Shown here one piece after another: positions 1 to 62,851 of a DNA stretch of 64,000 nucleotides. Under the pieces are notes generated by a model that searched no databases, was not told the origin of the DNA, and saw only the letters and a list, made by a program, of their open reading frames with translations. Every line of letters starts with the position of its first letter. Position 1 is the first letter of the stretch. The position numbers and the translations under genes were made by a program. The DNA is from Prevotella sp. (GTDB taxonomy: Bacteria; Bacteroidota; Bacteroidia; Bacteroidales; Bacteroidaceae): positions 49,270 through 113,269 of the forward strand of contig JAFUVB010000064.1 in the NCBI GenBank assembly GCA_017471245.1, given 5' to 3'.

Positions 1-613
1 TAACGCGTTTCCAGAAAAAGCTGATTACGAATGTGGCACTGATGAGTATGGCGGAAAGATGCACGATGGCGAAGCACGTCATGTAAAAAGCACTGCCTGT
101 ACACTCCTCGCTCACTTCCTGATAAGCCGTGTTTCCAACAAACATACCTATCGAGGCAATGAGCGGTCTCACGAAATAGGCGGGCAGCGAGGATGCCGTG
201 CCGCTGGTGAAGAAACCGATATAGTAGAGCACGCAGCCGCTTACCAATGTGAGCACTGCCATGATGCGGAGTCCTCGGTGGCGGTAGTGGGCAAGGTGTT
301 TCTGCTTTCGGCTGAGGCGGCTGGCAGTGAAATGATATCCCAACCACAGCAGATACAGCAAGATAATGGTGAGTGAGCAGTAGAGCAGTGACTTTCTGAT
401 GTTGTTCATCTGCGATACTGCCACGATGGCATCGTTGGCTTTCTGGATGATTGCCACATCTTTAAACGTGCTGTCGGCAATCTGCACCATTTCGTTTTCT
501 GCCGTTTGTGCTGCTTCGGCATATTCCTTTCGCTCGCCCAAGGTGTTTCCTGCAGTCAGGGTGCATGCGGCTATCAGGCAGTATAACAGTAGATACAGTT
601 TCTTCATAATCAT
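1..613 (-). CDS. Multi-pass membrane protein with N-terminal signal peptide, partial (runs off the left edge; absent from the ORF track)
   Basis: Manual translation from ATG at 613 (or 607) gives MIMKKLYLLLYCLIAACTLTAGNT...SLLYCSLTIILLYLLWLGYHF...IMAVLTLVSGCVLYYIGFF...FAIVHLSAILISATFVISFFWKRV, open to base 1 with several hydrophobic segments. Confidence 0.8.
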   Translation of the reverse strand, partial: MIMKKLYLLLYCLIAACTLTAGNTLGERKEYAEAAQTAENEMVQIADSTFKDVAIIQKANDAIVAVSQMNNIRKSLLYCSLTIILLYLLWLGYHFTASRLSRKQKHLAHYRHRGLRIMAVLTLVSGCVLYYIGFFTSGTASSLPAYFVRPLIASIGMFVGNTAYQEVSEECTGSAFYMTCFAIVHLSAILISATFVISFFWKRV

Positions 614-683
614 GTACTTTCCTGTGCAAATATAGCGTATTTCGGCGGTATTACCAATTATTTTCCATACTTTTTTGTGCAAC

Positions 684-750
684 AACGGGTAAAGACAATA
701 TCCATTAACGGGTAAAGACAATAGCCATTCAGCGTGAACCAATAACCGTT
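684..750. repeat. 23-bp direct repeat (2 near-identical copies plus 1 degenerate) in a divergent promoter region
   Basis: aacgggtaaagacaatatccatt (684-706), aacgggtaaagacaatagccatt (707-729), degenerate copy to about 750. Confidence 0.75.
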
Positions 751-862
751 AATCGTTTTTCTTTCATTTCTTTTATTGGTGAGCATTGCTCTATTTATAA
801 ATAATGTGTATCTCACTGCTGAAGAAAAAATGGAAGAAAAATCAAAAATAATAACAAAAAAG

Positions 863-893
863 TTTGTCAGGTTGCAGAAAATGTGTAAATTTG
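863..893 (+). promoter_or_regulatory. Bacteroidota housekeeping-sigma promoter of the trp operon
   Basis: TTTG at 863-866 and TAAATTTG at 886-893, spaced by 19 nt; matches the TTTG/TAnnTTTG consensus. Confidence 0.75.
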
Positions 894-921
894 CAACCGA
901 TAATCAAAAATAAAGAATAAA

Positions 922-981
922 ATGACAGTTAATGTATTCACAGCATGGTGGTGGCGCTACTCAAGATTCAACAAGTCGTGA
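922..981 (+). CDS. trpL: trp operon leader peptide MTVNVFTAWWWRYSRFNKS
   Basis: 19-codon ORF with three consecutive TGG codons (946-954), lying between the promoter and a terminator upstream of trpD. Confidence 0.9.
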   Translation: MTVNVFTAWWWRYSRFNKS

Positions 982-1017
982 GCAACGTAGCCGTGTGGAT
1001 ATTAGCATAAAAGCATA

Positions 1018-1053
1018 AAGGCCTGCCGTTCTTACGACAGGTCTTTTTTCTTT
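1018..1053 (+). terminator. Attenuator terminator of the trp leader
   Basis: Stem aaggcctgccgt / acgacaggtctt with a tctt loop, followed by a T-run, upstream of the trpD start. Confidence 0.85.
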
Positions 1054-1115
1054 ATTACGATTCCGTTATTGAGGATAAAAGAAATCAAGACAATACACAA
1101 TAAAAACAGAAAAAG

Positions 1116-2120
1116 ATGGAAATGAAAGAAATTCTCAACAGAATGTTGAATCACGAGGAACTGACACGTGAGGAAACGAAGAACATCTTGGTGGGCATTA
1201 CCAAGAGCGAATTCCCCAATGAGCAGATCACTGCCTTGCTCACAGCACTGCAAATGCGCGGCATAACGGTGGACGAGCTGCTCGGCTTTCGCGATGGAAT
1301 ATTAGAAACAGGTGTGAAAGCCGCGCTTGATTGCGACCGTTATATCGATGTGGTGGGTACCGGGGGCGACCGCAAGAATACGTTCAACATCTCTACCACC
1401 AGCTGTTTCGTGATTGCAGGAGCAGGCTACAAGGTGGCCAAGCACGGCAACTACGCCGCTACATCCACCAGCGGAGCATCGAATGTGATAGCCCACCACG
1501 GCATCAAATTCACCGACGACATCGACAAACTGAACCGCAGCATCAACGAATGCGGTATCGTTTATCTTCACGCACAGTTGTTTGCCAAGGCGATGAAGTT
1601 CGTAGGTCCCATCCGCAAGGCACTTCAGTTCCCCACATGCTTCAATCTTCTCGGTCCGATAGTGAATCCTTCACAGCCGCAGTGCCAGTTATTGGGCGTT
1701 GCCAACCTTGATCAGATGCGCCTATATAATAATGTGTATCAGAAAATAGGCATCGATTACGGAATCGTGAACAGCATCGATGGCTACGACGAAATCTCGC
1801 TGACAGGTGATTTCAAGGTAACAACCAATCAATATGAGCGTGTTTTCAAACCCTCCGATCTCGGTTTCGAGATTGCCAAACCAGAGGAGCTTGTTGCCGG
1901 TGCCACCGAAGACGAGGCAGCAAAGATATTCGACAGCGTGCTCGAAAACCGCTGCCTGCCGGCGCAGAAGAACATTGTGCTTGCCAATGCAGCCTTTGGA
2001 ATCCAGGTGATGGAGAAGGGAACGAAAAGCATTGAAGAATGTGTGGAGATCGCCCGTGAGAGTATCGACAGCGGCAGTGCACTGCACACCTTCCGCAAAT
2101 TCGTGGAGCTGAACAGCTGA
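1116..2120 (+). CDS. trpD: Anthranilate phosphoribosyltransferase
   Basis: DVVGTGGDRKNTFNISTT, KVAKHGN and DGYDEIS motifs. Confidence 0.97.
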   Translation: MEMKEILNRMLNHEELTREETKNILVGITKSEFPNEQITALLTALQMRGITVDELLGFRDGILETGVKAALDCDRYIDVVGTGGDRKNTFNISTTSCFVIAGAGYKVAKHGNYAATSTSGASNVIAHHGIKFTDDIDKLNRSINECGIVYLHAQLFAKAMKFVGPIRKALQFPTCFNLLGPIVNPSQPQCQLLGVANLDQMRLYNNVYQKIGIDYGIVNSIDGYDEISLTGDFKVTTNQYERVFKPSDLGFEIAKPEELVAGATEDEAAKIFDSVLENRCLPAQKNIVLANAAFGIQVMEKGTKSIEECVEIARESIDSGSALHTFRKFVELNS

Positions 2121-2162
2121 TCAATATGTCGTTTTTTTCACAGGAAACAAAATAAAATAAGG

Positions 2163-2960
2163 ATGAAAGACGTTTTAGAAGAAATCATCGCATGGAAACG
2201 TGAGGAAGTGATGCGTTTCAAGGAGGTGATGCCCGAGAAGACGCTACGCGTGAGAGTTGACGAGCTGATGCAGGAAGATGCCTTCGTTCCGTCAATGCGG
2301 CAGGCATTGATGTCATCGCCCACAGGAATCATCGCGGAGTTCAAACGGAAGTCACCCTCAAAAGGATGGATCAAGCAAGACGGTAGTGCTGAGCTGATAC
2401 CGCTTTCATACCAGCAAAACGGGGCTTCAGCACTGAGCATCCTCACCGATGAGCACTTCTTCGGCGGCAGCGACCGCTATGTGGTGGCAGCGAGAAAGAG
2501 TGGAGTGGTGCTGCCAGTGCTGTATAAGAATTTCATCATCGACGAATATCAGGTGTTCCAGGCACGCCTTTGCGGTGCATCGGCTGTGTTGCTCATTGCC
2601 GCCGATCTGCAGAAGAGCGAGTGCAAACGTCTCATCGAGACGGCGCATGGCATCGGTTTGGAGGTGCTTTTGGAGATGCACAGCGAGGAAGAACTGGAAT
2701 ATGCAGAACTGGAACCCGACATGTGCGGCATCAACAACCGCAATCTCGGCACGTTTGTCACCGATGTCGCCAACTCATTCCGGCTGTCGGAGCAGTTGCC
2801 AAAGGATGTCTGCAAGGTGAGCGAGAGTGGCATCTCGTCGCCGGAGGTGGTGAAACAGCTGCGCGAGGCAGGCTTTCAGGGATTCCTCATTGGTGAGAAC
2901 TTCATGAAAACCGATGATCCGGGCGGTTCGCTGCGTGATTTCATTGAATCGATTTTGTAA
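2163..2960 (+). CDS. trpC: Indole-3-glycerol phosphate synthase
   Basis: IIAEFKRKSPSKG, SILTDEHFF, GINNRNL and VSESGI motifs. Confidence 0.97.
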   Translation: MKDVLEEIIAWKREEVMRFKEVMPEKTLRVRVDELMQEDAFVPSMRQALMSSPTGIIAEFKRKSPSKGWIKQDGSAELIPLSYQQNGASALSILTDEHFFGGSDRYVVAARKSGVVLPVLYKNFIIDEYQVFQARLCGASAVLLIAADLQKSECKRLIETAHGIGLEVLLEMHSEEELEYAELEPDMCGINNRNLGTFVTDVANSFRLSEQLPKDVCKVSESGISSPEVVKQLREAGFQGFLIGENFMKTDDPGGSLRDFIESIL

Positions 2961-2974
2961 AAATTAATGACGAT

Positions 2975-3673
2975 ATGATAATAAAGGTATGTGGTTTGCG
3001 CGAGCCTGAGAACATTCGCGCGGTAGTTTCCCTGAATGTGGATATGATTGGTTTAATATTCTGGCCTCAGAGTAGTCGTTACGTGCAGATGATTTCTTCG
3101 CGTGCTGGTATTATTCCCGATTATTCGCAAGACCGTTTACACAAGCTCGAAAATGCAAATGCCGAGGCTGTTCCCTTACGTACTCCCAGCCGTGTGGGGG
3201 TGTTTGTAGATGACATGCCGCAGAATATAGTGACCCGCGTTTATAATTACAGTCTTGACTATGTACAGTTGCACGGTGAAGAATCGCCCGTGATGATTGA
3301 TAATCTGCGCAGAACCATTGATCCGGATATTCATCCCAATCTGAAGATTATCAAAACGTTAAGCATAAATACTAAAGAAGATGTTTTGAGCTGGCATGCC
3401 TATGAAGGGTGTGTGGATATGTTTCTCTTCGACACGAAGTGCGACTCCCTTGGCGGAAGCGGCAAGAAGTTCAACTGGAGTCTGTTAGAGGCATACGACG
3501 GAAACATACCTTTCCTCTTGAGCGGAGGCATCGGTCGCGATGATGTTGATGACATAAAGTCGTTCAGTCATCCGCAATTTGCAGGCATCGACCTGAACAG
3601 TTGCTTTGAAACATCTCCCGCAGTGAAGGATATTGATAAGCTGAAGTCGTTTATCCAAGCTGTCAGACAGTGA
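2975..3673 (+). CDS. trpF: Phosphoribosylanthranilate isomerase
   Basis: IKVCGL, VGVFV, VQLHGEE, FLFDT, GGSGKKFNW and LLSGG motifs. Confidence 0.95.
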   Translation: MIIKVCGLREPENIRAVVSLNVDMIGLIFWPQSSRYVQMISSRAGIIPDYSQDRLHKLENANAEAVPLRTPSRVGVFVDDMPQNIVTRVYNYSLDYVQLHGEESPVMIDNLRRTIDPDIHPNLKIIKTLSINTKEDVLSWHAYEGCVDMFLFDTKCDSLGGSGKKFNWSLLEAYDGNIPFLLSGGIGRDDVDDIKSFSHPQFAGIDLNSCFETSPAVKDIDKLKSFIQAVRQ

Positions 3674-3755
3674 GCATAACCAAATAACGATCAGGTGTTT
3701 GGTGCGATATTCAGCAACATGTATCATGACATTGTAAAAATTTTAGATATTTTTT

Positions 3756-4550
3756 ATGCAGACTCAAAATAGAATTAACCAATTGTTTTCAGAACAACGC
3801 GAAACGGGGCGCAAGCTGTTGTCGCTGTATTTCTGTGCCGGTTGTCCCTCACTCGATGGTACGGCACATGTCATCACGACTCTTCAACGGCGCGGAATCG
3901 ATATGATTGAAGTAGGAATACCCTTCAGCGACCCGCTTGCCGACGGTCCTGTCATTCAGAGTGCAGGAACTGTTGCATTGAAAAACGGCATGACACTCGC
4001 CACGCTTTTTGCGCAGTTGCGCGCCATCAAGGATGAGGTGAAGATTCCTTTGGTGATGATGGGTTATCTGAACGTCATCATGCACTACGGCATCGAGCAG
4101 TTTTGCAAGAGTTGTGTTGACAGCGGCGTGTCGGGAATGATTATCCCCGACCTGCCATTTGCCGATTATTTGAAGGAGGTGAAGCCCGTTGCCGACAGAT
4201 ACGACCTGCGTGTGATCATGATGATTACTCCCGAAACGAGCGAGGAGCGCATCCGTTTCATCGACGAACACACCGATGGGTTCATCTATATGGTGAGCTC
4301 CGCCAGCATCACCGGTGCTCAAAAGAGTTTCGACGATGCCAAGCAAGCCTATTTCCGTCACATCAACGGCATGCAATTAAGGAATCCGCGCATGATAGGA
4401 TTCGGCATCAGCAACAGGCAGACCTTGGAGAGTGCGCAGCAGAATGCCGCCGGTGCCATTGTCGGGTCTAAGTTTGTCACCTTGCTGAACGAAGCCGGCG
4501 GCGACGCAGATGTGGCAATGGATCGCCTATACGAGGCTTTGGAGAGATAG
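3756..4550 (+). CDS. trpA: Tryptophan synthase alpha chain
   Basis: IEVGIPFSDPLADGPVIQ, IIPDLP, GFGIS and GAIVGS motifs. Confidence 0.97.
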   Translation: MQTQNRINQLFSEQRETGRKLLSLYFCAGCPSLDGTAHVITTLQRRGIDMIEVGIPFSDPLADGPVIQSAGTVALKNGMTLATLFAQLRAIKDEVKIPLVMMGYLNVIMHYGIEQFCKSCVDSGVSGMIIPDLPFADYLKEVKPVADRYDLRVIMMITPETSEERIRFIDEHTDGFIYMVSSASITGAQKSFDDAKQAYFRHINGMQLRNPRMIGFGISNRQTLESAQQNAAGAIVGSKFVTLLNEAGGDADVAMDRLYEALER

Positions 4551-4595
4551 AGACAGCACTTCGTGCGTGAACAATAATCAGAAAAACAACCGACA

Positions 4596-5009
4596 ATGAC
4601 ACTGAAAGATTTCTTAAACAACGGCGATGTGTTCGCCAAAAACAGCGGTGCGCGCATCGTGGAGATAAGAGAAGGCTATGCAAGGGCTGAGATGACCGTC
4701 ACCAAAGAGCATCTCAATGCCGGCGGGGTGTGCCAAGGCGGTGCCTTGTTCACATTGGCTGACCTCGTTTTTGCTGCCATTTCCAACAGCCGTGGCAAGC
4801 TAACTTTCGGTCTGGAGAATACCATCACGTTCCTGCATAGTGCCTTCGTGGGTGACCAACTGACAGCCGAAGCCACCGAAACACTGAACCATCACAAGAT
4901 TCCATATTGCGAGATCAAGGTGAAAAACCAGCATGGCGACCTCGTATGCAGCATGACCGGCATTGCCTATCGCAAGGAGATTCCTACGGAATTGGATGGT
5001 CTGGAATGA
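4596..5009 (+). CDS. PaaI-family (hotdog-fold) thioesterase
   Basis: HLNAGGVCQGGALFTLADLVFA motif; 137 aa. Confidence 0.88.
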   Translation: MTLKDFLNNGDVFAKNSGARIVEIREGYARAEMTVTKEHLNAGGVCQGGALFTLADLVFAAISNSRGKLTFGLENTITFLHSAFVGDQLTAEATETLNHHKIPYCEIKVKNQHGDLVCSMTGIAYRKEIPTELDGLE

Positions 5010-5087
5010 CCGTAAGGGTGGCGTGATGTGCCGCTCAGTATGGAGAGATTAAATGATAATGATAATAACGTAATTAAATTTGTATAT

Positions 5088-6275
5088 ATGAAAGAGAGCT
5101 TTCTGGTTGACGAAAATGGCTTTTACGGTGAATTCGGAGGGGCCTACGTGCCTGAGATATTATATAAATGTGTGGAAGACCTGCGCCAGGCATATCTTCC
5201 CATCATCGAAAGCGAGGATTTCAAAAAGGAATACCATCTTTTGCTGCGCGATTATGTGGGGCGGCCGTCGCCGTTGTATTACGCCCGGCGCATGAGTGAG
5301 AAGTATGGCTGCCGCCTATATCTGAAAAGGGAAGACCTGAACCACACTGGCGCACATAAGATAAACAATACCATCGGTCAGATTCTTATGGCGAAGAAGA
5401 TGGGGAAGACACGTATCATCGCCGAAACAGGTGCCGGACAGCACGGAGTAGCCACTGCAACGGTTTGCGCATTGATGAATATGCAGTGCGAAGTGTTCAT
5501 GGGAGCCACCGATGTGGCACGTCAGCATACCAATGTAGAGCGGATGAAGATGCTCGGTGCTACGGTGCATCCCGTGCGCACGGGCAATATGACACTCAGC
5601 GATGCCTGTTCCGAGGCGATTCGCGACTGGTGTTGCCATCCGAAGGATACCTTCTACATCGTGGGATCCACCATGGGGCCGCATCCTTACCCGGATATCG
5701 TGGCGCGTATGCAGAGCATTATCTCTGAGGAAATCAGATGGCAGCTGCAGGAAAAGGAGGGGCGCGACTATCCTGACTACCTGATGGCATGCATCGGAGG
5801 CGGCAGCAACGCCGCAGGAACCATCTATCACTATATAAATGATGAGCGTGTGAAAATCGTTCTTGCCGAAGCAGGAGGTGCGGGGATAGATACCGACCGC
5901 ACGGCAGCAACGATTCACCGAGGAACAGTTGGCATCCTGCATGGTTCGAAGATGCTGGTGATGCAGACAGAAGACGGTCAGATAGAAGAGGCTTACAGCA
6001 TTTCGGCTGGTCTCGACTATCCCGGTGTGGGACCCATGCACTGTAATATGGCAGTGAAAGAGCGCAGTAAGGTGCTCGCCATCAACGATGATGAGGCTAT
6101 AAAGGCAGGCTATGAGCTCACCCGTATGGAGGGAATCATTCCGGCAATCGAGAGTGCGCATGCCGTTGCTGCCCTTAGCAAACTGACTTTCAAGCCTGAT
6201 GACGTGGTCGTACTTACCGTCAGCGGTCGCGGCGACAAGGATATCGAGACCTATCTGAACAACAAACCCGAATGA
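5088..6275 (+). CDS. trpB: Tryptophan synthase beta chain (start refined to MKESFLVDENG; ORF track gives 5028)
   Basis: LKREDLNHTGAHKINN, AETGAGQHG, GGGSNA and SAGLDYPGVGP motifs. Confidence 0.97.
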   Translation: MKESFLVDENGFYGEFGGAYVPEILYKCVEDLRQAYLPIIESEDFKKEYHLLLRDYVGRPSPLYYARRMSEKYGCRLYLKREDLNHTGAHKINNTIGQILMAKKMGKTRIIAETGAGQHGVATATVCALMNMQCEVFMGATDVARQHTNVERMKMLGATVHPVRTGNMTLSDACSEAIRDWCCHPKDTFYIVGSTMGPHPYPDIVARMQSIISEEIRWQLQEKEGRDYPDYLMACIGGGSNAAGTIYHYINDERVKIVLAEAGGAGIDTDRTAATIHRGTVGILHGSKMLVMQTEDGQIEEAYSISAGLDYPGVGPMHCNMAVKERSKVLAINDDEAIKAGYELTRMEGIIPAIESAHAVAALSKLTFKPDDVVVLTVSGRGDKDIETYLNNKPE

Positions 6276-7729
6276 AAGATATGATTTTCAAGTATACCAC
6301 ATGCAGCAAGTCGCTCCTTGGCGACCTTCACACACCCGTGGGTGTTTATATGCAGTTGCGCGATCTCTATCCGCAGAGCGCGCTCATGGAGAGTTCCGAC
6401 TACCACGAATCCAGCAACAGCCGGTCGTTTATCGGCGTTGATCCGATGGCAAGCGTGGCTATCAGCCATGGTGAGAGCGTTGCCACGTTCCCGGATGGCA
6501 GCGTTGTAAGGCACAAAGTGAATGCTGCTTACCGCAGCGACCATGCCATCAACGACTTTCTCTCACGTTTCGAGGTCGAAGGTGATGATTCTTGTCATTG
6601 CGGACTCTATGGTTACACTTCGTTCAATGCCGTCAGGTATTTCGAAAACATCCCTGTGAAGGACGAGACGATGGAGAAGAATGATGCACCTGATATGTAT
6701 TACATACTCTATCGTACCGTCATCGTGTTCGATCACCACAACAGCAAGATGAAAATCGTGAGTCTTTGCACTGCCGATGAGGAGGGGCTGCAGACAGGCA
6801 ACGGCCGTATTGATGCCATCTACAAGGCAATGAACAGGTCAAATGCTCACACTTATGGCTTCCATCCGGTAGGTGATACCACGTCATCGCTCACCGATGA
6901 GCAGCACAAGGCAAATATCCGAAAGGGTATACAGCACTGCAAGCGCGGCGATGTGTTCCAGATTGTGCTCTCGCGGCGGTTCATCCAGCGGTTCGAAGGA
7001 GATGATTTCAAGCTCTATCGCGCCCTCCGCAGCATCAATCCCTCACCTTATCTGTTCTATTTCGACTTTGGAGGATTCCGCATATTCGGCTCTTCGCCCG
7101 AGACCCACTGCCGTATCGTGAAGGAAGAACATGGCGACGGCGATGGCAAAGCACTGTTCAAGGCATATATCGATCCCATTGCAGGAACCACGCGGCGTAC
7201 TGGTGATGCCGCAGAAGACAAGATCAACGCCGACTATCTGCGCAACGACCCGAAGGAAAACGCAGAGCATGTGATGCTCGTTGACCTTGCGCGCAACGAT
7301 CTTTCGCGCAACTGCCACCACGTGAAGGTGGATTTCTATAAAGATCTTCAGTATTACAGCCACGTGATACATCTCGTTTCACGCGTAAGTGGCATACTCG
7401 ACGAGGGGGCAGACCCCATCAAGGCTTTCATCGATACTTTTCCGGCAGGAACACTTTCGGGTGCTCCCAAGGTGCGAGCCATGCAGTTGATCTCTGAATA
7501 TGAGCCTCACAATCGTGGAGCCTACGGCGGTTGCATCGGCTATATCGGGTTTAACCGCTCGCTGAATCAGGCGATTACCATCCGCACTTTCGTCAGTCGC
7601 AACGGTGAATTATGGTTCCAGGCAGGTGGCGGAATCGTGGCAAAGAGCAACGAGGAGTATGAACTACAGGAGGTAAACAATAAATTGGGCGCTCTCCGCC
7701 GTGCCATCATGATGGCGGAAAACATGTAG
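6272..7729 (+). CDS. trpE: Anthranilate synthase component I
   Basis: GDVFQIVLS, NPSPY, PIAGT, KENAEHVMLVDLARND, FPAGTLSGAPK and QAGGGIV motifs; 4-nt overlap with trpB. Confidence 0.96.
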   Translation: MKDMIFKYTTCSKSLLGDLHTPVGVYMQLRDLYPQSALMESSDYHESSNSRSFIGVDPMASVAISHGESVATFPDGSVVRHKVNAAYRSDHAINDFLSRFEVEGDDSCHCGLYGYTSFNAVRYFENIPVKDETMEKNDAPDMYYILYRTVIVFDHHNSKMKIVSLCTADEEGLQTGNGRIDAIYKAMNRSNAHTYGFHPVGDTTSSLTDEQHKANIRKGIQHCKRGDVFQIVLSRRFIQRFEGDDFKLYRALRSINPSPYLFYFDFGGFRIFGSSPETHCRIVKEEHGDGDGKALFKAYIDPIAGTTRRTGDAAEDKINADYLRNDPKENAEHVMLVDLARNDLSRNCHHVKVDFYKDLQYYSHVIHLVSRVSGILDEGADPIKAFIDTFPAGTLSGAPKVRAMQLISEYEPHNRGAYGGCIGYIGFNRSLNQAITIRTFVSRNGELWFQAGGGIVAKSNEEYELQEVNNKLGALRRAIMMAENM

Positions 7730-7748
7730 AATAGGGAGGAAAAGTGAT

Positions 7749-8315
7749 ATGAAAACAGTAATCATCGACAATTACGACTCGTTCACATACAATCTTTCGC
7801 ACTTGCTGAAAGAGCTCGGTGCGGATGTAACGGTGTATCGTAACGACCAGTTTCAACTTTCGCAGCTTGAAGAATACGACAAAATCGTGCTCAGTCCAGG
7901 GCCGGGAATCCCGTCGGAAGCTGGTCTGTTGCTCGACGTGATCCGCACTTACGCCGGGCGAAAGCCCATCTTGGGTGTCTGCTTGGGTCATCAGGCCATC
8001 GGCGAAGTGTTCGGTGCGAAGCTTGAAAACCTGTCCGACGTGTTTCATGGAGTTGCGACAACAGGCACGCTGACCACACCTCTCGATCCCATTTTCTGCG
8101 GTTGCGATGAGCGGTTCACCATGGGACGCTATCACTCATGGGTGGTTTCAAGGCAGGATTTCCCCGATTGTTTGGAGGTAACAGCCGAGAGCGACGAAGG
8201 ACAGATCATGGCGCTGCGCCACAGAACGTATGATATACGCGGCATTCAGTTCCATCCTGAAAGCGTGCTCACCCCTGACGGGAGGCGAATTCTTGAAAAC
8301 TGGCTCCGTTTATGA
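7749..8315 (+). CDS. trpG: Anthranilate synthase component II (glutamine amidotransferase)
   Basis: IDNYDSFTYN, SPGPG, GVCLGHQ, RYHS and QFHPES motifs. Confidence 0.96.
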   Translation: MKTVIIDNYDSFTYNLSHLLKELGADVTVYRNDQFQLSQLEEYDKIVLSPGPGIPSEAGLLLDVIRTYAGRKPILGVCLGHQAIGEVFGAKLENLSDVFHGVATTGTLTTPLDPIFCGCDERFTMGRYHSWVVSRQDFPDCLEVTAESDEGQIMALRHRTYDIRGIQFHPESVLTPDGRRILENWLRL

Positions 8316-17550: not shown

Positions 17551-18465
17551 ATGCGTATGAAGAAAATTTTTACTCTGTTTATACTGGCAGCAGCTGCCTT
17601 GACGGTGAACGCACAGACAAGAACCACCGTGTGGGAAGGCTCGAAAACCATGGATTCCACATGGCCTGCGGTGCAGATTGCCGCATCTCAGTTCAGCGAT
17701 GCACGTGCCGGTGACCAGATCATCGTTACGGTTTCGAAGGCCGACAACAGCATCAATTCAGGTTGGGAGTGGGGACCTCAGGTGTTCATCAAGCTGGATT
17801 GGCAGGATTTCTTGAGTGCCAAATATCTTACAGATGGTGCAACTGATGCCGAAGTAGCTTTCGATCTCTCTGCCGACGACGTAGATAAAATAAAGGCAGG
17901 ACAGGAGATTGAGATTCAGGGAATGAACGTTATCGTGGCGAAATGCGAGCTTCTTACAGCCGCAGAAACCACTTCTTCCACCATCTGGGAGGGCGAATGC
18001 GCCTTCGGAGACTGGGCCGCGGGCTTCAGCATCGACGCTGAAAAGTTTGCAGATGCATCTGCCGGCGATGCCATAGTGTTCAATTACACGGTAACGAAGA
18101 ATGAAGAGAAGAACTGGTATCAGTTTAAAACCATCTTCGCAGGTACTGATAGTGAAACGCTTACCAGCAATGCGAGCGACCTGAACGAGTATGGTTGCGC
18201 CAGCGTTACGGTTGATTCAAAGTCGTTCAAGATCACTCTCAATGCCGAAGACGTGGCAAAGTTGAAGGAGACAGGTCTGTATGTGAACGGCAAAGACATC
18301 ACCGTGACTTCCGTAAACCTGCTGAAAGTGGTTACGGGAATCAGCAATGCAGCCGCCAAGCAGGAGAAAACCGCCGACGCCTACTATTCTTTAGACGGCG
18401 TGAAGGTGGCATCTCCGCAGAAGGGCATGTATATTTATAAGGGCAAGAAAATCGTAGTAAAGTAG
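17551..18465 (+). CDS. Secreted protein with two tandem CBM-like repeats and a Prevotella-type T9SS-like C-terminal tail
   Basis: Signal peptide; repeats TTVWEGSK...AGDQII...LSADDVDKIK and STIWEGEC...AGDAIV...LNAEDVAKLK; tail TGIS...YYSLDGVKV...KGMYIYKGKKIVVK. Confidence 0.8.
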   Translation: MRMKKIFTLFILAAAALTVNAQTRTTVWEGSKTMDSTWPAVQIAASQFSDARAGDQIIVTVSKADNSINSGWEWGPQVFIKLDWQDFLSAKYLTDGATDAEVAFDLSADDVDKIKAGQEIEIQGMNVIVAKCELLTAAETTSSTIWEGECAFGDWAAGFSIDAEKFADASAGDAIVFNYTVTKNEEKNWYQFKTIFAGTDSETLTSNASDLNEYGCASVTVDSKSFKITLNAEDVAKLKETGLYVNGKDITVTSVNLLKVVTGISNAAAKQEKTADAYYSLDGVKVASPQKGMYIYKGKKIVVK

Positions 18466-25203: not shown

Positions 25204-26739
25204 ATGAAGAAATTATTTACTTTGTTAATGGGGGGGGTATTTTTCCTTTCTAACAGTGCTCAGGCAGAAGATTTACCTGTAGCAGGTGGTTGGAACTGGT
25301 CTGTTCCTATGTACAGCTGCTCTGTGACTTTTAATAATCAATGGAGCGAATTAGGATTGTGTAAGGCTCTCAAAGACAATTCATTGCCTTTGGCAGACTA
25401 TAAAGGAGTAACAGTTTATTTCGACGAAAATGCCATTCCCGCAGCTGATAAACTTCAGTTTAAAGTGCAAAATGCCACACAAGATGGTCAGTACAGCAGT
25501 AACGATGGATCAGAAACAATGTCAATTACATTTAATGCTGACAACTTTGGTGATGACCAAGTCATCATCCGTGTGAATCTTCAGGCTAAAGAGGCAGGAA
25601 TAACTGCCAAGATCGACAAAGTGGTCCTCATTAAAACTGACGGCACAGAGGTGGACAGCGAGTGCACAGCAGATTGGGACATTGCGCATTCATGGGGAGT
25701 GACAGCCGAAAGTACATCCAAAGTCACCACATTCCAGCAATGGGGGCAGCTTGGCAATTGGAATAATACATTGGAAGAAGGCTATGCTCATGTATACACA
25801 TTCACCTTTGGCGGCAGTGGTGTAGCTGAAGGCGATTTGCAGATTAAGTATACAGATGATAGTGCGATTGATCATTTCTCTGATGTGCCTGCTGGAACAT
25901 CTTTCTCGTATGAAGTAAAAGAGACTTATACAAATTTCTCTCTTCAGGCAAAAAAGGCAACAGAAGTTGAAATACTTTCTATCACTCGTGAGGCACAGGC
26001 TGCCACTCCGCCTATTGAGTTGGATGAATACAAAGAATTTCCAGAGTTAACCCCAGGTGATGTAGTAGACTTAAAGATTATACGTACTTTCAATGTGGGA
26101 TGGAACACAATCAGCGTACCCACCTATTTGACACCTCTCTACATTAAGAAGTTTTTCGGTGCCAATGTTAAAGTTTATGACTTTATCGACTATTCTGATG
26201 GTAAGCTAAACTTCTCTGAGATGGATTTGGTTTCAAATCCAACTAATTGGACAATTGATGGTTATAAGGCTTACTTGATTTATATAACTGATACAGATGC
26301 TCGTGCCTTGACTGGTAAATTCACGATTTATGGTGCTACAGTTCGCGGTAATGCAGATGAAAATGGATTTGTGGTGCCTGGCGGTACTTATGATGAAGCT
26401 TCCAACGTTACATTCAAGGGAACATACGCACCTCTTTCTGGCTCCGATCTCTCTGGAAGCTATGGTGTGCTTGCTGACGGACATGTGAAGAAGGCTGGTC
26501 CGAATGCTTACGTTGGTGGATACCATGCTTATTTCACTGGCATTCCTGCCGCAGCAGAAGCCAAGGGAGTGAAATTGGTGATCGACGGTGCCGAGACAAC
26601 AGGCATTTCTCAGGTTGTTGCAGCGGAGGAAGTGTTCGGCAACGGTGCCGTTTATAACCTCAGCGGTCAGCGCGTAGACGGCAAGAACCTTGCCCCTGGC
26701 ATCTATGTGCGCAACGGAAAGAAATTCATGGTGAAATAA
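25204..26739 (+). CDS. Secreted protein with two N-terminal beta-rich repeats, a 'WNT' domain and a T9SS-like C-terminal tail
   Basis: Signal peptide; RTFNVGWNTISVP...FKGTY...YHAYF; tail ETTGIS...GAVYNLSGQRV...PGIYVRNGKKFMVK. Confidence 0.82.
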   Translation: MKKLFTLLMGGVFFLSNSAQAEDLPVAGGWNWSVPMYSCSVTFNNQWSELGLCKALKDNSLPLADYKGVTVYFDENAIPAADKLQFKVQNATQDGQYSSNDGSETMSITFNADNFGDDQVIIRVNLQAKEAGITAKIDKVVLIKTDGTEVDSECTADWDIAHSWGVTAESTSKVTTFQQWGQLGNWNNTLEEGYAHVYTFTFGGSGVAEGDLQIKYTDDSAIDHFSDVPAGTSFSYEVKETYTNFSLQAKKATEVEILSITREAQAATPPIELDEYKEFPELTPGDVVDLKIIRTFNVGWNTISVPTYLTPLYIKKFFGANVKVYDFIDYSDGKLNFSEMDLVSNPTNWTIDGYKAYLIYITDTDARALTGKFTIYGATVRGNADENGFVVPGGTYDEASNVTFKGTYAPLSGSDLSGSYGVLADGHVKKAGPNAYVGGYHAYFTGIPAAAEAKGVKLVIDGAETTGISQVVAAEEVFGNGAVYNLSGQRVDGKNLAPGIYVRNGKKFMVK

Positions 26740-26765
26740 TTAACACTCAATAAAGCGTAACAATT

Positions 26766-26957
26766 ATGGAAAAGAAATTATATATTGCTCCATTGAGCAC
26801 AGTGAAAGCAGTTGAAGTGGGAAATTTGTTGGATGCTTCTCCCGACTCAGTGTTGGATCCGGAGCTTGAAAACACTTTCGTGATTCCCTCTGACGAAGAA
26901 TACAACGGACGTTTCTCAACGAAGAAGAAGTCCATCTGGTTCTATCTTGATGACTGA
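26766..26957 (+). CDS. 63-aa peptide (MEKKLYIAP...LLDAS...SIW family)
   Basis: ORF 26 nt after the preceding gene, followed by a strong terminator; paralogue at 62276. Confidence 0.8.
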   Translation: MEKKLYIAPLSTVKAVEVGNLLDASPDSVLDPELENTFVIPSDEEYNGRFSTKKKSIWFYLDD

Positions 26958-26991
26958 TAAGTGATTCACGTTGAGTGAAAACGATAAAATG

Positions 26992-27035
26992 AAATCAACT
27001 TCCGCAGGGTTTTCCTTGTGGAAGTTGATTTTTTT
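26992..27035 (+). terminator. Intrinsic terminator closing the large-protein plus peptide unit
   Basis: aaatcaacttccgcaggg / ccttgtggaagttgattt followed by a T-run. Confidence 0.85.
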
Positions 27036-27149: not shown

Positions 27150-27451
27150 TATCAAAATCGCTGCGTTACCTGCTGCGTTACCCGCTGCGATTATTTCATT
27201 GACCATTGACCATTGACCATTGACCTCGCAGCGGGTAACGCAGCGGGTAACGCAGCGATTTCGATAAGGTTCTGATTATGAGCATTTTACGCGCAGCGAC
27301 GCATCGATTTCGTTTTTCAAGTAGGAGAGCGCGATGTGGATTGCGGAAAAAACATTATCTTTTGTGATGCGAAACATTATCTTTTGTGATGCGAAACATA
27401 CGGTTTCAAATAGCAAAAGCATAGCTTTCGGAGATTGAAAGCTATGCTTTT
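27150..27451. repeat. Composite palindromic element copy 1: 41-bp inverted repeat, (CATTGAC)4 loop and 22-bp-period array
   Basis: Arms 27150-27190 and 27226-27266 (2 mismatches) built from GCTGCGTTACC; array cores at 27349, 27371, 27393, 27415 and 27437. Confidence 0.88.
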
Positions 27452-60147: not shown

Positions 60148-62199
60148 ATGCGAAAGTTATACCAAAGGGCATTGGCTGTTATGGCCTTTGCGAGCGTTGC
60201 TTGTGCTGTTCAGGCGCAAGAAGTGACTTTGTCGATTGACAGAGAGAAGTATCCGCAGCTCACGGATGTGCCTACGATGTACATCGAAGTAGACGGAAAC
60301 AAGGAAATCACCACCAAAGTGAGTGCGTATGATTCTGCAACGATCGTGATTGTGGATGCTAACGGACAGCTGAAGGAGCGCAACGAGCGCGTGGGAATCC
60401 GCTTGCGCGGCAACTCTACAAGCTCTTCGGCGAAGAAACCCTACCGTTTGAAGTTCCCAAGCAAGACCGCTCTGCTGAAGAAAGCCGACGGAACCAACGA
60501 CTTTGCCGACGCTAAGAGCTGGACATTGCTTGCCAATGCCTACGACAAATCGATGATCCACAACGCCCTGACCTATGAGCTGGGCAAGTTCGTGGGACTT
60601 CCGTTCTGTCCCTGCTACCAGTTTGTTGACCTCGTTTATAACGGCGACTACCGCGGAACCTATCAGATTTCCGACCAGGTGCAGCAAGACAAGAACCGCG
60701 TGAATATCGGAAAAGACGGCTGGCTGTGGGAATTGACCCGCCAATCCTTTATCGATGCTAACGATTCGACAATGTTAAACGACGGTATTTATGCCATTAT
60801 CAAGAACCCCGACACCGATGATTTCGATGGGGATTCACTGAAGAGGGTGATGACTCCTGTGTTCGAGGGCATGGTCAACGCCATCAACAGCCGCGATTTC
60901 AGTGAATCCACGGGCTATCGCAAATATATCGACGTGGAATCGCTTATTGATTACTACATCGTGATGGAGGTTAGCGGCAACTACGACGCATGGGTGAGCA
61001 ACTATATGTATAAGAATGCAGCCGACGAAAAGCTGAAATTCGGTCCCGTTTGGGACTGCGACCTCTGCTACGGCAACAAAAGCGGGCTCGAAAATATCCT
61101 CACTTGGGAGAACAATGGCAGCTCTTTCCAGCCAATGGCTTCGAAAATACGGAACATCTTCGGCGATCCGCAGTTCGTGAAGGCACTCAACGACCGCTGG
61201 AACGAGCTTGTGGAGCAGGGAATACTCGACTTCCTGAAAGCCAAGACCGACTCTTTGGCGAGCGTTGTGGCACAGACGCAGGCCAAAAACTATTCGCTTT
61301 CGTCGAAAGGAGCTGCCTGGAATGTGAACCAAAAGGAGTTCGACTGGGCAGGCGGCGACGTTTATACCTCGTATGATGCATCGGTTGCTGCCATCAAAAC
61401 GTTCCTCGATGCGCACGTTTCTTACATGACAACGCGCTTTGAGGCAGAATTGGCAGCCGTGGAGAGCGCTAAGACAACCGTAGAACTGAATGCGCAGGAC
61501 GAGCAATATCAGTTTAACAACAACATTGCCGACAGCGACGGACAATACAACTATACCAAACTGAACCGCATGGCTGACGTTTCGATTGCCAACCGCACCA
61601 TCGACGGCGCGGCTTGGAACACCATCTGCCTGCCGTTTGATGCCACGCGCGAACAGCTTGAGGCAGCTTTCGGCACGGAATACAAGCTCCGCGAGTTCAC
61701 CGACGTTGAAGGAAGCGTCATGAAATTTGCCGAACCGAAGGACAAAAAGATCATTGCCGGTGTGCCATACCTCATCAAACTGAGCGGCGCAGGTGCCTCG
61801 GCGAGCCTGAATTTCACCGATGTGATGCTCACCGTAAAGGTTCCGCTCACCATTACCCACGGCGACTATTCGTTTGCAGGCACGTTCTGGAAGACCACAC
61901 TCAACACCGACGGCACCCATCTCTTCCTTGGCGCAGCCGACGAACTGTATAAACCCACCACGTCGGGCAACAAAATCTATGGCATGCGCGCCTATTTCGT
62001 GGTGCCAGCAGGCAGCAGCGCCAAGGTGCAGATTGCCGAAAGCGATGCCGAAACCACGGGTATCAGCGAGCTTGTCGCAGGTAAAGCAACTGCAAACGGT
62101 GCCGTTTACAGTGTGAGCGGGCAGCTCGTGGGCAGCAAGAGAGGCTCACTTCCCAAGGGAATCTATATCCAGGACGGCAAGAAATTCGTGGTAAAATAA
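60148..62199 (+). CDS. Secreted CotH-family kinase with a 'WNT' domain and T9SS-like tail
   Basis: RLRGNST, KKPYRLKF, WTLLANAYDKS, YRGTY and GPVWDCDLCYGN; then WNTICLPF...MRAYF; tail ETTGIS...KGIYIQDGKKFVVK. Confidence 0.88.
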   Translation: MRKLYQRALAVMAFASVACAVQAQEVTLSIDREKYPQLTDVPTMYIEVDGNKEITTKVSAYDSATIVIVDANGQLKERNERVGIRLRGNSTSSSAKKPYRLKFPSKTALLKKADGTNDFADAKSWTLLANAYDKSMIHNALTYELGKFVGLPFCPCYQFVDLVYNGDYRGTYQISDQVQQDKNRVNIGKDGWLWELTRQSFIDANDSTMLNDGIYAIIKNPDTDDFDGDSLKRVMTPVFEGMVNAINSRDFSESTGYRKYIDVESLIDYYIVMEVSGNYDAWVSNYMYKNAADEKLKFGPVWDCDLCYGNKSGLENILTWENNGSSFQPMASKIRNIFGDPQFVKALNDRWNELVEQGILDFLKAKTDSLASVVAQTQAKNYSLSSKGAAWNVNQKEFDWAGGDVYTSYDASVAAIKTFLDAHVSYMTTRFEAELAAVESAKTTVELNAQDEQYQFNNNIADSDGQYNYTKLNRMADVSIANRTIDGAAWNTICLPFDATREQLEAAFGTEYKLREFTDVEGSVMKFAEPKDKKIIAGVPYLIKLSGAGASASLNFTDVMLTVKVPLTITHGDYSFAGTFWKTTLNTDGTHLFLGAADELYKPTTSGNKIYGMRAYFVVPAGSSAKVQIAESDAETTGISELVAGKATANGAVYSVSGQLVGSKRGSLPKGIYIQDGKKFVVK

Positions 62200-62204
62200 G
62201 GCGT

Positions 62205-62227
62205 TGAGGCAGCTCTCAGCTGCCTCA
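62205..62227. other. Hairpin between the CotH gene and its downstream peptide
   Basis: tgaggcagct-ctc-agctgcctca; a T-run starts 7 nt later. Confidence 0.6.
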
Positions 62228-62275: not shown

Positions 62276-62443
62276 ATGAAAAAGAAAGCATATATATCAC
62301 CGCGCATCTGCGAAAAGCAGGTTTACGACGAGCCGTTGATGGCGGTTATATCGGATGGAAATTCGGTTGAAGCTACACCAAACGGTGAAGAAGATGCCGC
62401 AGGAGCGCGCTCCAAAGGCAGTATTTGGGAGTTCTCCAATTAG
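62276..62443 (+). CDS. 55-aa peptide MKKKAYISPRICEKQVYDEPLMAVISDGNSVEATPNGEEDAAGARSKGSIWEFSN (not in the ORF track)
   Basis: Manual translation; A-rich upstream region; motif-level similarity to the peptide at 26766. Confidence 0.8.
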   Translation: MKKKAYISPRICEKQVYDEPLMAVISDGNSVEATPNGEEDAAGARSKGSIWEFSN

Positions 62444-62450
62444 AAAGCCA

Positions 62451-62752
62451 AGGGGGGAGTTTTTAAGAAGCAAGAGGCAAGAGGCAAGAAGCAAGAGAAT
62501 AGCTTTTTGGGAAGCAAGAAGCAGGTTTTTAAGAAGCAAGAAGCAAGAGGCAAGAAGCAAGAGAATAGCTTTTTGGGAAGCAAGAAGCAGGTTTTTAAGA
62601 AGCAAGAAGCAAGAGGCAAGAAGCAAGAGAATAGCATTGAATCTCTTGCTTCTTGCTTTTCATTTCTTGCCACTTTGTATCCTAAAACCACGCATCTCTG
62701 AATCTATTCTCTTGCTTCTTGCCTCTTGCCTCTTGCTTCTCAAAACCCCTCT
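62451..62752. repeat. Heptamer element with 66-bp higher-order tandem units and a terminal inverted repeat
   Basis: Units start at 62459, 62525 and 62591; reverse-complement arm at 62704-62752. Confidence 0.88.
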
Positions 62753-62770
62753 CCTTAGTTCCCGTTTTTC

Positions 62771-62851
62771 AAAACCTATGTTTTTGAGCGTGAAAAACAT
62801 AGGTTTCGAGGATCAAAACCATAGTTTTTTCGTCTCAAAACCATAGGTTTT
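62771..62851. repeat. 22-bp-period array 4 (4 units)
   Basis: Cores at 62771, 62793, 62815 and 62837 (aaaacctatgttttt, aaaaacataggtttc, aaaaccatagttttt, aaaaccataggtttt). Confidence 0.88.

Follow-up and report, generated by a model that had tools for sequence, protein, structure and literature searches.

Type IX secretion system (T9SS) cargo proteins that carry a type B C-terminal domain (CTD) have a cognate PorP/SprF-like gene adjacent, as in sprB-sprF of Flavobacterium johnsoniae; PorP/SprF proteins are outer-membrane beta-barrels of approximately 300 aa with signal peptides. Here, we describe T9SS cargo genes with an adjacent gene for a small acidic peptide in a 64,000-nucleotide stretch of a Prevotella sp. 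genome (GenBank assembly GCA_017471245.1, contig JAFUVB010000064.1, positions 49,270–113,269, forward strand), hereafter called the window. The assembly containing the window is 3.73 Mb with 48% GC. In the window, two cargos with a common C-terminal region, termed the WNT domain, were each followed by a peptide gene whose product starts with a YxxP motif, and both cargos ended in a short secretion tail. A short CTD of 40–51 aa, which is cleaved at (P/T)T|GI and contains motifs B (Y.L.G..[RK]), D (GxY or GxN then I), and E (K...K), is known from Prevotella intermedia, where mass spectrometry demonstrated that the CTD is cleaved and the new C-terminus is glycosylated (Ye et al., Open Biol 2025; PMC11969387).

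For the peptides, the closest described relatives are the precursors of linear polyphosphorylated peptides (LPPs), a family of RiPPs (peptides made by the ribosome and modified after translation). The leader of LPP precursors reads YxxPxVLxHQxIxFETxxS; its Ser at Y+18 is the phospho-acceptor, and [Y/W]xxP is the motif of both lasso and LPP leaders that binds the RiPP recognition element (RRE) (Popov et al., Nat Commun 2026; PMC13381572). LPP clusters often lie within capsule loci, their function is stated as unknown, and the family is described as restricted to Bacillota (PMC13381572). The short CTD and the LPP enzyme set from Bacillota are therefore already known, and we found no mention of the WNT domain, the peptide family, or the peptide–cargo pairing in the literature searched. 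Added here are a contrast between domain and tail within one genome, an operon of three candidate maturation enzymes, and complete clusters with family members in relatives that lack the T9SS.

A first-pass annotation of the window, made from the letters alone, had claimed two recurrent gene pairs, and both were placed as claimed (Table 1). The common C-terminal region that it had noticed in the otherwise unrelated cargos was also confirmed: the final approximately 215 residues of cargos 1 and 2 were 33% identical (E 8e-18). The start of each cargo, judged by eye, resembled a signal peptide, with a basic and then hydrophobic N-terminus. In Pfam and NCBIfam scans of both cargos and both peptides, no match other than CotH was found. 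Cargo 2 consists of a CotH kinase-fold domain, the WNT domain, and a short CTD, and is predicted to be displayed on the surface by the T9SS. An AlphaFold2 model of the last 230 residues of cargo 1 had a pLDDT of 87.7. Directly compared, the two window peptides showed a weak likeness (E 8e-4); peptide 1 had an acidic middle and the C-terminus K-K-S-I-W58, followed by an acidic end. The hairpin directly 3' of peptide gene 1 closes a two-gene unit of cargo 1 and peptide 1, and no terminator-like site was found between these two genes. In pair 2, a 9-bp intergenic hairpin at 62206–62226 fell short of the terminator rule used.

Table 1. Positions in the window of the two cargo–peptide gene pairs, their parts, and the internal control protein.
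Feature	Position	Strand	Description
T9SS cargo gene 1	25204..26739	+	511 aa; signal-peptide-like start; beta-rich N-terminal part
Cargo 1 WNT domain	residues 289-454 (nt 26068-26565)	+	HMM coordinates
Cargo 1 short CTD	residues 464-511 (nt 26593-26736)	+	tail HMM; cleavage motif ETT|GIS
Peptide gene 1	26766..26957	+	63 aa; start 26 nt past cargo 1 stop codon
Peptide 1 leader-like part	residues 1-25		Y6 (26781-26783), P9 (26790-26792), S25 (26838-26840)
Terminator-like hairpin	26991..27032	+	19-bp stem and T run; directly 3' of peptide gene 1
T9SS cargo gene 2	60148..62199	+	683 aa; signal-peptide-like start; CotH kinase-fold PF08757 at residues 84-427
Cargo 2 WNT domain	residues 476-626 (nt 61573-62025)	+	
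Cargo 2 short CTD	residues 635-683 (nt 62050-62196)	+	
Peptide gene 2	62276..62443	+	55 aa; Y6, P9, S26, W51; start 76 nt past cargo 2 stop codon
Internal control protein	17551..18465	+	304 aa; short CTD; no WNT domain; no peptide gene after it

The pairing was investigated over the whole genome with separate profile hidden Markov models (HMMs) for the WNT domain (approximately 150 residues, from the WNT..CLPF start to the RAYF end) and the tail (approximately 45 residues). The tail HMM matched 37 proteins, always at the C-terminus. WNT domain and tail occurred together in 19 of them, and a peptide gene followed directly in 15 of these 19. The other 18 were tail-only proteins, and a peptide followed just two of them, both apparently with divergent copies of the domain. 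The observation in the first-pass annotation that a third tail-bearing protein of the window has neither WNT domain nor peptide therefore generalises to the genome. In a control count on open reading frames (ORFs) of at least 250 aa, a small ORF of the M..Y..P pattern was present within 150 nt downstream of 17/33 tail-motif ORFs compared with 12/2157 others. These results revealed that cargo–peptide adjacency is far above chance and that the peptide tracks the WNT domain, not the secretion tail itself. The interpretation in the first-pass annotation is supported in part, its core inference of a tie between the peptide and WNT cargos being borne out. The N-terminal parts of the partners were diverse, including BspA-type leucine-rich repeat (LRR), DUF285, Ig-like, ricin-like, and CotH types. 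The WNT domain family itself is very large (approximately 26,000 cluster representatives); neither a Pfam or NCBIfam model nor a similar PDB entry was found for it.

The T9SS is present in this genome, as indicated by GldM/PorM (E 4e-174). Alignment of 21 tails indicated that they fit the short CTD in length (40–51 aa), in the (P/T)T|GI cleavage motif, and in motifs B, D, and E at the extreme C-terminus. The T9SS signal proposed in the first-pass annotation can thus be specified: by its sequence, the tail appears to be the published short CTD of Prevotella T9SS cargos. The idea of a new CTD class was dropped, as the tail fits that of PMC11969387. Neither window cargo matched TIGR04183/Por_Secre_tail at E ≤ 1; two partner proteins reached 19–20 bits on the type A CTD model, for which the cut-off is 23, and the partners in general scored under it or gave no score at all. 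Twelve canonical type A CTD proteins of this genome passed TIGR04183, and none of them adjoins a peptide. The cargos resemble the short-CTD cargos of P. intermedia in the features of the tail and in cargo types (LRR, DUF285, and adhesin-like), but that paper mentions neither a domain before the CTD nor a small gene downstream (PMC11969387), and in this genome a WNT domain and a peptide accompany no more than about half of the short-CTD proteins. As the short CTD is cleaved off, the WNT domain would be the last domain of the mature cargo, beside the surface anchor. Similar to the type B CTD and PorP/SprF arrangement, a class of T9SS cargo is set by its C-terminal region and has a dedicated small partner gene adjacent. 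Unlike PorP/SprF, however, the partner here is an acidic peptide of 50–95 aa with neither a signal peptide nor a Pfam or NCBIfam match, and unlike that of type B cargos, the CTD here is a shortened type A CTD with type A motifs.

A motif scan, followed by a profile built from it, identified 21 paralogous small ORFs (49–97 aa) in this genome, 17 or 18 of which begin 0–76 nt after a large tail-ending ORF. In the alignment of the 21 paralogues, Y6 and P9 were invariant and a Trp close to the C-terminus was almost invariant. The peptide design described in the first-pass annotation held for YxxP and the C-terminal Trp, whereas its "P..EE" middle was not a conserved motif. When 45 family members from approximately 30 genomes were compared, the Tyr and Pro of the N-terminal YxxP, present in 45/45, were the sole invariant residues. 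Hydrophobic residues were found at Y+5, +7/8, +10, and +15/16, and a Ser was conserved at Y+19/20. The middle was variable, acidic, and rich in Gly, Asp, and Asn, and the C-terminus was conserved as Trp plus acidic residues. Two other readings of the N-terminus were rejected: charged residues break the hydrophobic stretch that a Sec signal or lipoprotein would have, and the GS of a double-glycine leader is not conserved. In public protein collections, homologues of the peptides were found only as unnamed or "hypothetical" Prevotella proteins.

Reading frames were open at the approximately 45 loci examined. For paralogous peptide pairs, the proportion of synonymous differences was approximately 0.7 (saturated) and that of nonsynonymous differences was 0.19–0.45, which corresponds to a dN/dS of approximately 0.1–0.5; an example pair, 71% identical in protein, had a dN/dS of 0.10. 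These values were obtained from paralogues, since 100 genomes from the genus contained no close orthologue of pair 1. Judged by codon-level comparison, the peptide ORFs are coding and under purifying selection.

The distribution of the peptides was surveyed in a sample of 151 genomes that belong to the window's GTDB family. Matches to the peptide profile were found in 84 of the 151 genomes and in 26 of 35 genera, GldM was detected in 105, and the WNT-plus-tail module in 102, 97 of which also had GldM. Peptides were present in 78/105 GldM-positive vs 6/46 GldM-negative genomes, and in 77/102 module-positive vs 7/49 module-negative genomes; in one genus, the sole GldM-bearing genome was also the sole peptide-bearing genome. 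These counts are only descriptive, because related genomes are not independent. In other genomes, a tail gene followed by a peptide was observed at 8/11 and 19/28 loci in two sets. An order-level sample of 201 genomes contained one further family with peptides at E ≤ 1e-4; its representative, G380, has 9 peptide copies and was the sole genome outside the window's family with peptides in that sample.

We searched the genome of the window for candidate maturation enzymes, designated K (HprK-like kinase), S (signal-peptidase-I-like protease), B (PqqD/RRE), N (NTP_transf_5), and D (ABC exporter). Exactly one PqqD protein was identified (E 4e-15, passing the cut-off), and it is encoded in a K-S-B operon on contig C93 (8734–10366 of locus L080, G000:C93:18000-34000). 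This RRE weakly matched the lasso PqqD model. S is a peptidase of the S24/S26 type, 171 aa in length, in which GYSMRP and HRII motifs were found (weak match to TIGR02228 sigpep_I_arch, E 4e-4), and K, a P-loop protein of 294 aa, has the Walker motif KSGTGKST and gave weak HprK-related matches; both were assigned by sub-threshold family matches, catalytic motifs, and homology to the cluster of the T9SS-less relative G015 described below. An exporter homologue (43% identity, E 1e-144), an MsbA-like ABC protein, is encoded on contig C47, and NTP_transf_5 homologues are on contigs C20 and C86. The first-pass annotation had noted that no maturation enzyme is encoded nearby, which is true of the window but not of the genome. 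In this genome, no small YxxP ORF was found beside K-S-B. Sequence searches of the PDB with the three enzymes returned nothing useful. Within L080 5639–10366, K-S-B comes after genes for an HtrA-like protease, an rpoD-like sigma factor, and a 181-aa secreted Lys-rich protein; the surroundings are housekeeping-like and not a capsule locus.

Members of the same peptide family were located inside or near clusters of these enzymes in six T9SS-less relatives (G015, G004, G008, G048, G070, and G122). The cluster of G015 (L098, G015:C1:591000-606000; 3437–8112, minus strand) encodes, in this order, an HprK-like kinase, a signal-peptidase-I-like protease, a PqqD RRE, NTP_transf_5, an ABC exporter, and a YxxP peptide of the same leader design, and corresponds to the full LPP core set. 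Its K, S, and B homologues were 30, 42, and 42% identical to those of the window's genome, respectively. In G008, G048, G070, and G122 (L109, L111, L091, and L114), the gene order is conserved: RRE, NTP transferase, kinase, Wza, Wzc, and YxxP peptide, then two lipoproteins, the first of them fimbrillin-like (Mfa-like). Across these four genomes, the lipoproteins were mutually homologous and had no WNT domain. In G004 (L108, G004:C1:514000-526000; 3–5283, minus strand), four tandem paralogous lipoproteins of approximately 505 aa have ...CLWQAQ ends, and the YxxP peptide gene lies between the last two lipoprotein genes, approximately 8 kb from an RRE/NTP-transferase/kinase trio. Overall, the peptide was 3–8 kb from the K/N/B genes on the same strand in 6/14 T9SS-less loci, one of which had been chosen for its peptide, so that the unbiased count is 5/13; the false-positive rate was approximately 2 per 310 loci of that size (binomial P ~2e-10). 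In T9SS-positive genomes, the K-S-B operon was compact and alone (11 loci examined). A RiPP matured in trans had been one of several options in the first-pass annotation, and it gains support from the PqqD/RRE, protease, and kinase in this genome and from the occurrence of the same peptide family inside the clusters of relatives.

The comparison with lasso peptides drawn in that annotation did not hold; the LPP family is closer. The peptides are like lasso systems with a discrete RRE (B1) in their YxxP leader and PqqD-like RRE, but unlike lasso peptides in that the core is long, acidic, and variable. The transglutaminase-type B2 peptidase of lasso systems (PF13471) had no match in the genome at E ≤ 0.1, a cyclase not having been searched for, and the lasso identity was rejected for want of a B2 peptidase. 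Similar to LPPs, the precursors are short, with an N-terminal YxxP and a conserved Ser approximately 18–20 residues past the Tyr, and there is a link to capsule or polysaccharide export, since Wza and Wzc adjoin K/N/B in four relatives. Unlike LPPs, which are said to be confined to Bacillota (PMC13381572), the peptides here are from Bacteroidota. In Prevotella, the precursor genes have multiplied (21 copies here) and are dispersed at a distance from the enzyme genes, each of them following a gene for a T9SS cargo.

Taken together, we lean towards the interpretation that the small ORFs are precursors of an LPP-like RiPP pathway, matured in trans and each coupled to a WNT-domain T9SS cargo. The computational evidence covers the pairing, its domain specificity, the purifying selection, the presence of K-S-B, and family membership in the K/S/B/N/D clusters of relatives; every biochemical step and the nature of the WNT link are what we infer. 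In the proposed mechanism, the N-terminal approximately 25 residues would serve as the leader, the YxxP of which may be bound by the single discrete PqqD/RRE of the genome. The signal-peptidase-I-like protease encoded beside the RRE would then cut off the leader near the conserved h-h-x-A-S site, the adjoining HprK-like kinase would phosphorylate the Ser near the new N-terminus, and nucleotidyl or glycosyl transfer possibly comes next. The MsbA-like ABC exporter would carry the product across the inner membrane. The enzymes, encoded on other contigs (C93, C47, C20, and C86), would serve all of the approximately 21 precursors in trans. Each precursor gene would share a transcript with, or directly follow, a cargo gene in whose mature product the WNT domain comes last, just ahead of the short-CTD cleavage site. 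As the peptide gene is tied to a cargo gene of this kind, the mature acidic peptide, with its conserved Trp-acidic C-terminus, may act with the WNT domain, whether in the periplasm or at the cell surface.

The most economical account, which seems to us somewhat probable, is that the peptides descend from, and remain, LPP-like precursors. In Prevotella-type lineages, the precursor genes may have multiplied and moved behind WNT cargo genes, the enzymes staying as one conserved operon. An LPP-like precursor would explain the invariant YxxP and the Ser approximately 20 residues further on, and also why the peptides lack a signal peptide and why their acidic core is disordered.

Several observations weigh against this account. 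The matches of K, S, and B to the HprK, signal peptidase I, and lasso-RRE models were under the curated cut-offs, PqqD being the exception. No precursor lies within the cluster in this genome or in 10/11 other T9SS-positive K-S-B loci, and at the sole exception among the latter, in G035, the peptide comes after a WNT cargo gene, which does no more than converge on the operon. The kinase was present in 82/84 peptide-positive genomes, but K and S occurred in approximately 80% of the genomes of the family, including 40/67 without detectable peptides; co-occurrence with the peptide therefore looks necessary but has little discriminating power, and there may be other substrates for the enzymes. Furthermore, the C-termini of LPPs are variable, whereas the C-terminus here is a conserved Trp-acidic end. 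RiPP logic alone leaves this end and the one-to-one WNT pairing unexplained. Both features suggest that the mature peptide meets the domain in the periplasm or on the surface, where it may be a ligand bound to the domain, a passenger exported together with it, or a covalent tether. Several natural pairs lie in frame, and such contact was not visible in a model of a natural pair in which the in-frame stop codons were read as Gly so as to tether the peptide to its own partner (a modelling device that makes no claim of read-through). In this tethered AlphaFold2 model, the domain and tail had a pLDDT above 90, the peptide remained at approximately 50 with no secondary structure, and no contact between the peptide and the WNT domain was formed. 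The model is weak negative evidence, because the tether was short and the peptide alignment was shallow. Strand complementation or docking of the peptide on the WNT domain was rejected on this basis.

We considered the alternative that the peptide is an unmodified small acidic protein serving as a dedicated helper of WNT cargos, be it as a chaperone, as an adaptor for export or anchoring, or as a stoichiometric subunit, and that K-S-B is unrelated to it. This possibility is favoured by the strict one-to-one pairing with the WNT domain, by the duplication of whole pairs in which the subtype of the peptide corresponds to those of tail and domain, by the confinement of the peptide to T9SS-bearing lineages, and by the far wider occurrence of K-S-B than of the peptide. 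It also has a parallel in type B CTD cargos, which need an adjacent cognate PorP/SprF-like protein. However, the peptide lacks a signal peptide and would stay in the cytoplasm unaided, whereas the WNT domain folds after Sec export, and in the AlphaFold model the tethered peptide was nowhere in contact with the domain. A helper function also leaves unexplained why an RRE-type YxxP provides the sole invariant residues and why the family occurs inside K/S/B/N/D clusters, or by WNT-less lipoproteins, in T9SS-less relatives. Hence, we regard an unmodified helper as somewhat unlikely.

Within the LPP-like interpretation, the mature phosphorylated leader-less peptide might reach the surface via the neighbouring cargo, either non-covalently, by binding the WNT domain in the periplasm and passing through the T9SS along with the folded cargo, or covalently, with its new N-terminal amine as the acceptor by which the PorU sortase joins it to the cargo C-terminus at T|GI. 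This route is speculative, and we consider it unlikely. If it were true, the RiPP would be a surface tether or decoration of T9SS proteins, a new mode of attachment for surface proteins, and the loci of T9SS-less relatives with a peptide and fimbrillin-like lipoproteins would be its counterpart.

It is also conceivable that the peptides, as exported signals or products of a bacteriocin-like kind, have a role independent of the adjacent gene, and that they follow WNT-domain genes only through the spread of the 3' end of these genes (WNT domain, CTD, peptide, and downstream repeats) as a single recombining cassette. Such spreading would be consistent with unrelated cargo N-terminal parts (CotH, BspA-type LRR, Ig-like, and DUF285) joined to common 3' modules, with repeat elements after both window peptides, and with insertions of an insertion sequence and an ATPase gene at two loci. 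The lack of a close orthologue of pair 1 among the 100 genus genomes likewise points to fast turnover. On the other hand, the pairing holds across many genera, and tail-only genes have the same CTD without a peptide. In addition, the saturated synonymous sites between paralogous peptides indicate that the pairs are ancient and that selection has held them together, and we judge a free-standing product on a cassette to be quite improbable. Least plausible, and very improbable indeed, is that the small ORFs are untranslated and the conserved stretch is a 3' untranslated region or RNA element of the cargo genes: no ORF is named beyond "hypothetical protein" in a public protein collection, but dN/dS was 0.1–0.5 at saturated synonymous divergence, conservation is at the amino-acid level (Y, P, S, and W) with variable length, and the frames are open at the approximately 45 loci examined.

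Prevotella and related bacteria are dominant in the gut, the rumen, and the mouth, and adhesin-like proteins displayed by the T9SS shape their colonisation. The peptide family occurs in most T9SS-bearing genomes of the bacterial family, yet, like the WNT domain, it has neither a name nor a model. Should the peptides be LPP-like products, the LPP pathway, said to be exclusive to Bacillota when it was published in 2026, would extend to Bacteroidota, and cell-surface proteins and polysaccharide export would become the first concrete functional lead for LPPs. The layout would also be unusual for a RiPP, with one enzyme set for approximately 20 precursors encoded at dispersed sites, every one of them linked to a specific partner gene that does not encode an enzyme.

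Repeat elements were observed 3' of both window peptide genes (27150–27451 and 62440–62850). They consist of GCTGCGTTACC-type inverted arms with a heptamer microsatellite and of approximately 66-bp tandem units rich in AAGCAAGA.

Four peptides of this genome were orphans, two of which are accounted for by insertions and the other two of which lie immediately 5' of lipoprotein genes. At the orphan of G000:C103:32232-33402, a DDE transposase gene is immediately upstream, and at that of G000:C88:86345-88590, an AAA_14 ATPase gene on the opposite strand splits the peptide from a WNT-domain gene. A weak peptide-like ORF (G000:C73:36153-36368, minus strand; per-locus E 1e-3) was also observed just 5' of a WNT-domain gene without a downstream peptide; it is near the contig end and may belong to a gene past the contig. 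In total, three paralogues are immediately 5' of genes for lipoproteins of 458, 550, and 602 aa (G000:C41:3079-4625, G000:C79:25907-27754, and G000:C103:33244-35232), among which one weak Lcl_C-like match and one beta-helix of the Cthe_2159 type were found. This peptide-then-lipoprotein order echoes the order in the T9SS-less relatives.

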